Assembly: GCF_024700885.2 (NCBI RefSeq)
Contig: NZ_CP117016.1
DNA from: Escherichia coli
GTDB lineage: Bacteria > Pseudomonadota > Gammaproteobacteria > Enterobacterales > Enterobacteriaceae
Length of the DNA stretch: 64,000 nt
Strand: one strand, 5' to 3'
Both the position numbers and the translations under genes were made by a program. The notes under the pieces were generated by a model. It made no database searches. It was given only the letters and a program-made list of their open reading frames with translations, and had not been told where the DNA came from. Of this stretch, positions 50,932 through 53,102 are shown piece by piece (the stretch's first letter is position 1; each line of letters opens with the position of its first letter).

Positions 50932-51927
50932 ATGATACAACCTATTTCCGGCCCTCCTCCTGGGCAACCACCAGGTCAGGGAGATAACCTGCCGTCTGGC
51001 GCGGGCAATCAGCCTTTATCCAGTCAGCAACGTACTTCGCTGGAAAGCTTAATGACGAAAGTGACCTCACTGACGCAACAGCAAAGAGCAGAACTGTGGG
51101 CGGGTATCAGGCACGATATTGGTCTGTCGGGAGATTCACCGCTGCTTTCGCGTCACTTCCCTGCCGCTGAGCACAATCTGGCGCAACGTCTGCTGGCCGC
51201 GCAAAAAAGCCATTCTGCCCGCCAGCTTTTAGCGCAATTAGGGGAGTATTTACGTCTGGGGAATAATCGTCAGGCGGTCACGGATTATATCCGTCATAAC
51301 TTTGGCCAGACGCCGCTGAATCAGCTCTCACCGGAGCAATTAAAAACAATTCTCACCCTGTTGCAGGAAGGGAAGATGGTTATTCCGCAACCGCAGCAGC
51401 GCGAGGCGACCGACCGTCCTTTATTACCGGCGGAGCACAATGCGCTTAAACAGCTGGTGACCAAACTTGCGGCGGCAACGGGGGAACCCAGCAAGCAGAT
51501 CTGGCAATCGATGCTGGAACTTTCCGGGGTGAAAGATGGCGAGTTAATTCCAGCGAAACTGTTTAACCATCTGGTGACCTGGCTACAGGCGCGTCAGACG
51601 CTAAGCCAGCAAAATACGCCGACACTGGAATCACTACAGATGGCGCTAAAACAACCTTTAGATGCCAGTGAACTGGCGGCGTTATCGGCATATATCCAGC
51701 AAAAATATGGCCTTTCTGCGCAATCATCGCTTTCTTCTGCCCAGGCCGAGGATATTCTTAATCAGCTGTATCAACGGCGGGTTAAAGGGATTGATCCGCG
51801 TGATATGCAACCGCTGCTTAATCCTTTTCCACCGATGATGGACACGTTGCAAAATATGGCAACGCGTCCCGCACTGTGGATACTGTTAGTCGCGATTATC
51901 CTGATGCTGGTCTGGCTGGTTCGTTAA
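50932..51927 (+). CDS. flk: Flagellar regulator Flk (Gln-rich, C-terminal membrane anchor)
   Basis: 331-aa ORF; C-terminal hydrophobic helix; matches Flk. Confidence 0.9.
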
Positions 51928-53102
51928 CCCCGACGAAACGACAGTATCGTGACAATAATTCCCAGCACCGCAGAGATCGCCCCGGCAAGAAATACCGAAG
52001 AGTAACCAAACGTGGTCGCCAGCATTCCCGCCAGCGGCCCGGAGACGCCGAGGGCGATATCCTGAAACGCGGCGTAACCGCCCAGTGCGGTGCCGCGAAC
52101 TTGTGAGGGGACGCGTTTAACCACCTCCACGCCCAGCGCAGGAAAGATAAGCGAACATCCGGCTCCGGTTAACGCCGCGCCCGCTAATGCGACCCACGCA
52201 CCTGGGGCTTGCCAGAGCAGCAACAAGCCCACCGTTTCTACAAGCAGAGAGACAATCGCCACTTTCACACCGCCAAAACGGTCCGGCATCCAGCCAAACA
52301 TGACGCGCATCACGACAAATGCGCCGCCAAACGCGGTAAGAGTAAAGCCCGCCATCGCCCATCCTTTGCTGGCAAAGTAGAGCGAAACGAAAGTCCCGAT
52401 AACCGCAAAACCAACGCCTTGTAGTGCCAGACCTAACCCTGGTTTCCAGATAAGCCCGACAACGCTCCATAGCGATGGACGTTCTCCCGCCAGGGCCGGT
52501 ACTTTGCGCACTGTGCCGTTACAGGCCCACGCCAGTAAGGGTAATGCCATTGTGGTGAGCGCCAGTGCGGCAAAACCGTAATGGCTATGAATCAACAGGC
52601 CAAGCGGCGCACCAACAGCGAGGGCACCGTAAATCGCCATTCCGTTCCATGACATCACTTTGCCGGAATGTTTTGGCCCAACGATGCCTAATCCCCAGGT
52701 CAGAGCGCCCGTCAGTAACTGGCTTTCACCAAAGCCAAGAATCAAACGCCCGACGACCAACAGGGCAAATTTGAACGGTGCAGCGACGGGCAAAATCGCC
52801 GCCAGCAGCAACGCGCCCCCCGCCAGACCGCAAGCTAACATCCCCTGAAGCGCCGAACGTTTTGCGCCATATTGATCGGCCAGTCGCCCGGCGTAACCAC
52901 GCGTCAGCACCGTAGCCAGAAACTGAATGCCGACGGCAATACCGACCATGGTGTTGCCATAGCCCAGTTCATGATGAACAAACAGCGGGATAACCGGCAA
53001 CGGCAGCCCTACGGTCATGTAGGTGAGAAAAACCGCAAAAGCGATGCGGAAGAGCGAAAAATTGGCAGAAGATCGTGTTTCGGTTTGGCTTACAGCAGTC
53101 AT
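51924..53102 (-). CDS. yfcJ: MFS-family transporter
   Basis: 392-aa polytopic membrane ORF; 3' end overlaps the flk 3' end by 4 bp. Confidence 0.9.

Follow-up and report, generated by a model that had tools for sequence, protein, structure and literature searches.

Convergent genes that share exactly 4 nt at their stop codons form the described class closest to the flk-yfcJ junction of Escherichia coli. On opposite strands, two stop codons can share a tetramer only as TTAA, CTAA, TTAG, or CTAG (YTAR, where Y is T or C and R is A or G), i.e., a T or C placed before TAA or TAG creates a stop on the opposite strand as well. Lillo & Krakauer (2007) reported that the length distribution of convergent overlaps jumps at 4 and named the same four tetramers as the cause (PMC2174442). 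Their survey counts 1890 convergent overlaps in 58 genomes, 1218 of them at least 5 nt long; by our own subtraction from these totals, the 4-nt type makes up ~36%. For E. coli, it counts 58 convergent overlaps, with 23 of 116 genes having a predicted terminator inside the partner gene (PMC2174442). Because stop-codon geometry favors length 4, an overlap of this size is not a statistical oddity.

Overlap of convergent transcripts has been described as well. Conway et al. (2014) found that 276 of 370 E. coli convergent operon pairs (75%) overlap at their 3' ends, by 286 nt on average (PMC4161252). ExcludonFinder (2025) lists flk-yfcJ by name among 165 convergent excludons, present in at least 50% of 58 MG1655 transcriptomes (PMC12288877). 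The locus resembles the cases in both studies in its reported transcriptional overlap at the 3' ends. A further described system is the bidirectional terminator between convergent genes, in some cases collision-driven (Ju et al. 2019, as summarized by Wang et al.; 10.1101/2022.10.23.513370), for which hairpins without U tracts are reported to position collisions between polymerases. Collision-driven termination is reported to be efficient mainly for highly expressed pairs.

We analyzed a stretch of 64,000 nucleotides of E. coli DNA (hereafter, the window), the relevant features of which are collected in Table 1. The + strand at 51916..51927 reads CTG GTT CGT TAA, placing the flk stop TAA at 51925..51927, and the TTA at 51924..51926 gives the yfcJ stop TAA when read on the - strand. 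The two coding sequences (CDSs) overlap by 4 bp, and the stop codons themselves have 2 bp in common. A preliminary description of this DNA had proposed just such a tail-to-tail arrangement, with the same two stops, and it is borne out by the sequence, the open reading frames, and RefSeq. RefSeq annotates an identical 4-bp flk/yfcJ overlap in strain MLI114 and in K-12, where flk occupies 2437950..2438945 and yfcJ 2438942..2440120 (a K-12 coordinate equals the window coordinate plus 2387018). The region 51400..52500 matches MLI114 at 100% identity. Almost all of 5,426 complete E. coli genomes match it at 95-99% and carry the flk and yfcJ annotation here.

Table 1. Features at and around the flk-yfcJ junction, in window coordinates
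Feature	Position	Strand	Details
flk	50932..51927	+	Flagella biosynthesis regulator Flk, 331 aa; ORF list, RefSeq, NF007987
yfcJ	51924..53102	-	MFS transporter, 392 aa; ORF list, RefSeq, MFS_1, PRK12382
Shared TTAA with both stops	51924..51927	both	Sequence
11-bp-stem palindromic hairpin in flk CDS	51841..51870	-	GGACGCGUUGC-CAUAUUUU-GCAACGUGUCC; -19.5 kcal/mol
GC-rich hairpin in yfcJ CDS	52068..52097	+	-18.7 kcal/mol
Start of flk read-through RNA (80 nt, untranslated)	51928..52007	+	C 33%, G 21%; composition profile
Pho box, last codons of yfcJ	51937..51954	-	TGTCACGATACTGTCGTT here, TGTCACGATACTGTCATT in K-12
Published Rho-dependent termination region in yfcJ	53025 (K-12 2440043)	-	Score 5.8, significance 4e-12 (PMC7815308)
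fabB intrinsic terminator, upstream of yfcJ	53263..53287	-	GGGAACC-TGAT-GGTTCCC then T5

We considered a re-annotation of the flk or yfcJ stop and rejected it as very unlikely, since the profile matches reach the protein ends and the orthologues stop at the same codons. Both proteins are full-length: Flk covers positions 1-338 of 339 in the NCBIfam equivalog NF007987 (507 bits; cut-off 353), and YfcJ covers 1-392 of 392 in PRK12382 (703 bits) and also matches Pfam MFS_1 with 123 bits. Such a re-annotation was the one result that the preliminary description had named as refuting the overlap. Flk has a hydrophobic C-terminal stretch, which we take to be a membrane anchor.

The pair has every feature of the YTAR class: facing 3' ends, an allowed tetramer, genuine C-termini, and conservation among relatives. 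Like the 4-nt overlaps of Lillo & Krakauer, it lies on opposite strands and uses one tetramer for both stops. It is also short, is conserved among related species, and, as is the case for most E. coli genes in that survey, lacks a predicted intrinsic terminator. We found no essential difference from the class as far as the available portion of the survey describes it; there, the pair falls among the 58 E. coli convergent overlaps, which are counted together while individual pairs go unnamed (PMC2174442). Six convergent pairs are annotated within 14512..64000 of the window; flk-yfcJ is the only one that overlaps, and the remaining five have spacers of 32-72 bp. The overlap is already annotated, is of the commonest documented kind of convergent overlap, and has already been published as a transcriptional overlap.

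For comparison, we scanned one genome per species with YfcJ, which yielded 80 loci, and located both stops at each; with two E. coli references (L001 and L002), 82 loci were analyzed. The 4-nt overlap is present at 29 of these (the two references and 27 species loci), with TTAA at 16, CTAA at 5, TTAG at 6, and CTAG at 2. It occurs in all Escherichia (TTAA at 7 of 7 Escherichia-level loci), Salmonella, nearly all Citrobacter, Intestinirhabdus, Pluralibacter, and some other Enterobacteriaceae. The middle TA of the tetramer, fixed by both stops, is invariant across the overlap loci, and the outer positions vary by transitions that leave the amino acid of the final sense codon (NNY) unchanged in one gene and turn TAA into TAG in the other. 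On a neighbor-joining tree of YfcJ, the overlap state occupies two groups, one on the side of Escherichia, Salmonella, and Citrobacter and one that contains Pluralibacter and adjoins Enterobacter. E. coli and Salmonella split on the order of 100 million years ago, and the arrangement that they share is therefore old.

Enterobacter, Lelliottia, Leclercia, Klebsiella, Raoultella, Buttiauxella, and others instead have a spacer of 26-123 bp, and in all 80 species the flk and yfcJ orthologues end at homologous codons, whether overlapping or spaced. The junctions of Enterobacter, Klebsiella, and Buttiauxella join the same orthologous genes with the same end codons as in E. coli but have a hairpin or REP spacer, whereas the Escherichia/Salmonella/Citrobacter group has none. 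Every one of the spacers in this size range (30/30) contains either a hairpin, with a GC-rich stem of 10-14 bp, or an inverted REP pair. In the 31-bp spacer of Buttiauxella, the base of the 10-bp stem varies in a compensatory manner (TAGCC/GGCTA, TTGCC/GGCAA, and AAGCC/GGCTT), a pattern which argues that this hairpin is under selection. We had also considered the spacer hairpins as bidirectional intrinsic terminators and dropped the idea because most have no flanking U tracts; we refer to them only as hairpins or REPs.

How transcripts end at a junction without a spacer was addressed on both strands. A consensus scan of the + strand found no terminator-like site from the flk stop to 53171. On the - strand past the yfcJ stop, the sole site that it returned was a hairpin of -3.2 kcal/mol (51876..51860), which competes with the -19.5 kcal/mol hairpin of Table 1. 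No credible canonical intrinsic terminator emerged within either partner gene, where the strong hairpins lack U tracts. Likewise, a GC-rich hairpin followed by a U tract on each strand, as expected of an embedded or bidirectional intrinsic terminator, was not found. A comparison with Rfam identified one element in the whole window, the nuoG RNA (13164..13206), and nothing close to the junction. By geometry, a complete flk mRNA necessarily contains bases of the yfcJ stop, and with neither a spacer nor a canonical terminator, each complete mRNA must therefore end inside the partner gene. The preliminary description had held that the overlapping stops leave no room for terminators. It was right in that none is credible on either strand, but a lack of room by itself excludes none, as the 23 of 116 E. 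coli genes with a terminator predicted inside the partner illustrate (PMC2174442); at flk-yfcJ, moreover, both coding ends contain strong hairpins that lack U tracts. Its further statement that the transcripts read into each other agrees with the missing spacer, the lack of a credible terminator, and the published RNA-seq listing (PMC12288877).

The RNA past the flk stop is C-rich, G-poor, and untranslated, as expected of a Rho-dependent terminator, with a C/G ratio that rises from 1.5 over the initial 80 nt to as much as 2.0 at 300-380 nt past the stop. Such a composition would be suited to Rho loading. The RNA past the yfcJ stop is not C-rich and G-poor in the same profile. In the Term-seq and bicyclomycin data of Adams et al., there is no 3' end or Rho-dependent region in K-12 2437xxx-2439xxx, and no Rho-dependent region is listed for the + strand of 2437xxx-2440xxx, where low expression may mask one (PMC7815308). 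The only Rho-dependent region nearby lies in yfcJ, the transcription of which is halted by Rho 78 nt into the CDS (PMC7815308), and much yfcJ transcription appears to end well short of the junction under the conditions of Adams et al. Farther upstream of yfcJ, a Term-seq 3' end at K-12 2440281 on the - strand (window 53263) corresponds to the fabB terminator (PMC7815308). The A tract on the other side of this terminator could let it stop + strand read-through, too.

Published data also bear on whether the two RNAs meet as duplexes. In a p19 capture of RNase III duplexes, none of the entries listed in the coordinate-sorted file 7 falls between dedA and fabB, and the names flk and yfcJ are absent from the 10 supplementary files of the study, where low expression could mask a duplex (PMC7373196). 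The yfcJ RNA is low, at 163 normalized counts versus thousands for many genes in one data set (PMC10294691). The preliminary description had suggested that antisense interference is allowed at this junction. The overlap does permit it, but the data sets record no junction 3' ends, Rho-dependent region, or duplexes, and yfcJ transcription is stopped early and is low. Antisense interference at flk-yfcJ is probably weak, and strong interference in laboratory conditions is unlikely.

Both coding ends contain stable hairpins (Table 1). The hairpin in flk lies 54-83 nt beyond the yfcJ stop on the yfcJ-sense strand, and the one in yfcJ lies 141-170 nt beyond the flk stop on the flk-sense strand; neither has a U tract. 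By position, they are candidate 3'-end or pause hairpins for yfcJ and flk transcripts, respectively. When codons were shuffled synonymously, none of 300 shuffles was as stable as the flk hairpin (shuffle mean -11.3, SD 2.2), and 2 of 100 were as stable as the yfcJ hairpin (K-12 sequence). Outside E. coli proper, the flk hairpin is weakened or absent, and it is broken in a close Escherichia relative (L003).

We extended the shuffling across species by taking the last 60 codons of yfcJ and expressing the hairpin potential of each genome as a percentile among its synonymous shuffles, a test that was conceived after the hairpin had already been observed. The median percentile was 17 in overlap genomes (n = 27) and 83 in spacer genomes (n = 16; uncorrected Mann-Whitney p = 1.4e-5). 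Within the Enterobacter-side clade, four overlap genomes lay at 13-25 and eight spacer genomes at 77-98. Four interior control windows of yfcJ gave mixed directions (p 0.03-0.4) and no comparable contrast, and the contrast at the flk end was weak (15 versus 25, p = 0.056). The stronger hairpins at the yfcJ end of overlap genomes hint at some RNA-level selection on the 3' ends, and the region is perhaps not functionally inert.

We weighed three regulatory readings of the junction against an ordinary overlap. One takes flk-yfcJ to be a functional convergent excludon, in which head-on polymerase collisions or RNase III cleavage of duplexes would make Flk and YfcJ expression mutually exclusive and the terminator-less overlap would persist for that reason. 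The pair is part of the MG1655 "excludome" (PMC12288877), but this listing confirms overlap rather than regulation and adds little, because overlapping CDSs that are expressed pass the coverage criterion of ExcludonFinder almost by construction. Excludons that have been characterized are marked by reciprocal expression and a dependence on RNase III, whereas for flk-yfcJ the duplex data (PMC7373196) and the 3'-end data (PMC7815308) are silent at the locus and yfcJ transcription is largely curtailed near its 5' end. The overlap geometry is kept across several genera, as this reading would predict, but selection on the two protein ends alone accounts for such conservation. Nor is a functional connection of Flk to any MFS transporter known to us. 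In favor are the absence of a terminator between or just past the stops and the presence, in both coding ends, of U-less hairpins of the kind reported to position collisions, which liken this convergent pair to the terminators of Ju et al. Those terminators, as described by Wang et al., sit between genes, whereas the flk-yfcJ hairpins sit within CDSs with no intergenic DNA, and collision-driven termination is reported to work efficiently mainly at high expression (10.1101/2022.10.23.513370), which the low yfcJ RNA does not offer. Overall, a functional excludon is decidedly unlikely. A second reading starts from the Pho box, which lies 10-27 bp from the shared TTAA: under phosphate starvation, PhoB bound at the junction would either stand in the way of the converging polymerases or activate an antisense promoter that points into flk. 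Fitzgerald et al. placed a PhoB ChIP-seq peak with its center at K-12 2438961 (motif TGTCACGATACTGTCATT, score 8, intragenic in yfcJ), which ranks seventh among 65 sites and first among the intragenic sites of K-12 (PMC10294691), and the motif is directed along the - strand toward flk. Against this, yfcJ RNA shows no PhoB-dependent change (163 in wild type versus 187 in a phoB deletion), and intragenic PhoB sites in general neither recruit sigma-70 nor give unannotated PhoB-regulated transcripts, such that the authors deem them inert (PMC10294691). The hexamer 10 nt after the box, TTAACG, matches a -10 element at 2 of 6 positions, without the key A2 and T6. Of the attributes of a PhoB-activated promoter, the box is bound (K-12 ChIP) but a -10 element and PhoB-dependent transcription are lacking, and we rejected the box as a promoter given this poor hexamer and the negative published result. 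The site is also altered in the window strain by one substitution in the second half-site (TGTCGT) and is absent in Salmonella and Citrobacter. We regard a role of PhoB at the junction as highly improbable.

The third reading holds that the coding ends carry selected 3' hairpins in place of the intergenic hairpin or REP of relatives, such that the overlap would be one part of a compensated 3'-end architecture and more than the plain loss of a terminator. In Escherichia, Salmonella, and Citrobacter, synonymous codon choice at both gene ends would then keep U-less hairpins that stop converging transcripts or polymerases, possibly with a regulatory effect. The universal occurrence of a hairpin or inverted REP in the 30 spacers and the compensatory stem changes in Buttiauxella are in line with this, as are the performance of the E. 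coli hairpins against synonymous shuffles and the difference at the yfcJ 3' end between overlap and spacer genomes, which holds within one clade and has no counterpart in the interior windows. However, the species are not independent, and lineage effects already bring an interior control to p ~0.03. Positional homology links many of the hairpins, which track conserved amino-acid motifs, and the flk hairpin is broken in a relative as close as L003. Since folding occurs on both strands, the signal could stem from structure in the sense mRNA, and the test was designed post hoc, with the hairpin seen beforehand. Compensation by coding-end hairpins, and their upkeep by codon choice in the three genera, are therefore both unlikely, and the signal is no more than a hint.

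We favor, with a probability of roughly 75%, the reading that flk-yfcJ is an ordinary, stable stop-to-stop overlap for which a regulatory role lacks support. Once formed, the overlap would be mutationally robust because transitions at the outer positions of the tetramer are tolerated and alter neither protein, and purifying selection on the lengths of both proteins could suffice to hold it. Transcripts of flk that continue past the stop as untranslated C-rich RNA are probably ended by Rho and may then be trimmed back as far as the hairpin at 52068..52097, or pause there. For yfcJ transcripts that escape early Rho action, the hairpin at 51841..51870 or its vicinity is the probable end point. 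The stretch shared by the two mRNAs would then be ~250 nt, comparable to the 286-nt average for E. coli convergent operons (PMC4161252). Both genes appear to be weakly transcribed, and the effect of the overlap on their expression is therefore most likely small.

By itself, the overlap is of little consequence, as the reference annotation includes it, its class is the commonest one documented for convergent overlaps, and the overlap in transcription has already been listed. Its value lies in the clean natural comparison that flk-yfcJ offers, with the same orthologues meeting, according to genus, either in a 4-nt overlap or across a hairpin or REP spacer. This comparison can be used to ask how 3'-end formation changes when a spacer is lacking. 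If coding-end hairpins hold across many such pairs, they would provide a general insight into how transcripts are ended without intergenic DNA.

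We scored hairpin potential in the last 60 codons of yfcJ against codon shuffles, across loci L002-L081 of the yfcJ-flk comparison. In genomes where the two coding sequences overlap by 4 nt, the hairpin potential of the yfcJ 3' end exceeded that of its shuffles (median percentile 17), whereas in genomes with a spacer between the stops it fell below them (median percentile 83), in a comparison that takes no account of phylogeny. Interior yfcJ windows, scored in the same way, gave no comparable contrast between overlap and spacer genomes. In the window, the flk and yfcJ coding ends each hold a strong hairpin of the U-less type (see table below). 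None of 300 synonymous-codon shuffles was as stable as the flk-end hairpin, and 2 of 100 were as stable as the yfcJ-end hairpin. Beyond E. coli proper, the hairpin in flk is weaker or missing.

Features in and around the yfcJ-flk junction and elsewhere in the window
Feature	Window position	Strand	Location
nuoG RNA (RF01748)	13164..13206	-	
Strong U-less hairpin	51841..51870		inside flk coding end
Pho box	51937..51954	-	final yfcJ codons; junction 10-27 bp away
Strong U-less hairpin	52068..52097		inside yfcJ coding end
Rho-dependent termination region	~53025 (K-12 2440043)	-	yfcJ coding sequence
Difference from K-12 in a REP-like stretch	53347..53358	-	between fabB and its terminator
IS3-family element	62239..63587		flanked by smrB and a gene for a StfH/YfcO-family fimbrial adhesin, as annotated in the matching strain

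In Buttiauxella (L062, L063, L064, and L072), 31 bp separate the yfcJ and flk stops and carry a hairpin with a 10-bp stem, in which compensatory base-pair changes occur among species (TAGCC/GGCTA, TTGCC/GGCAA, and AAGCC/GGCTT); a clear U tract was found on neither side of it. In the Enterobacter loci L020, L032, L034, L036, L038, L039, and L042, the spacer of 84-93 bp is a pair of REP-like units in inverted orientation (GCCGGGTGGCGGC...GCCTTACCCGG...), folding at -49 to -58 kcal/mol. In the flanking sequence retrieved for Kluyvera (L045, L047, L050-L053, and L070), no flk adjoining yfcJ was found. Among the other genera, several (L048, L049, L054, L057, L058, L061, L065, L071, L074, L078, and L082) have yfcJ and flk 1.5-2.4 kb apart. 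The flk matches at these loci include partial ones, suggesting insertions at the junction. One record, L037 (CACSKA010000009.1), is titled Chryseobacterium sp. 18061 and has a yfcJ-flk locus of enterobacterial type. Its YfcJ shares 87% identity with that of E. coli, and its junction is nearly the same as in Citrobacter sp. 18056 (L024); this assembly is probably mislabelled or contaminated.

The Pho box in yfcJ is the strongest of the K-12 intragenic PhoB ChIP-seq sites (score 8, peak 2438961) and was reported to be transcriptionally inert (PMC10294691). Its second half-site bears an A-to-G change in the window strain, and conservation of the box does not extend to Salmonella or Citrobacter. 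At gathering score, Rfam matches the window only once, at the nuoG RNA (50.3 bits). By the annotation of the matching strain, the IS3-family element encodes an IS1397 transposase with a programmed frameshift.

On the fabB side of yfcJ, the REP-like stretch is 10 bases longer than its K-12 counterpart (GTAGGCCGGAGTAGGTCGGATAAGACGCG in the window strain versus GTAGGTCGGAGTAGACGCG). The Rho-dependent termination region (Rho score 5.8; PMC7815308, supplementary file 2) comes 78 nt after the start of the yfcJ coding sequence, a position that suggests early attenuation of yfcJ transcription in LB.
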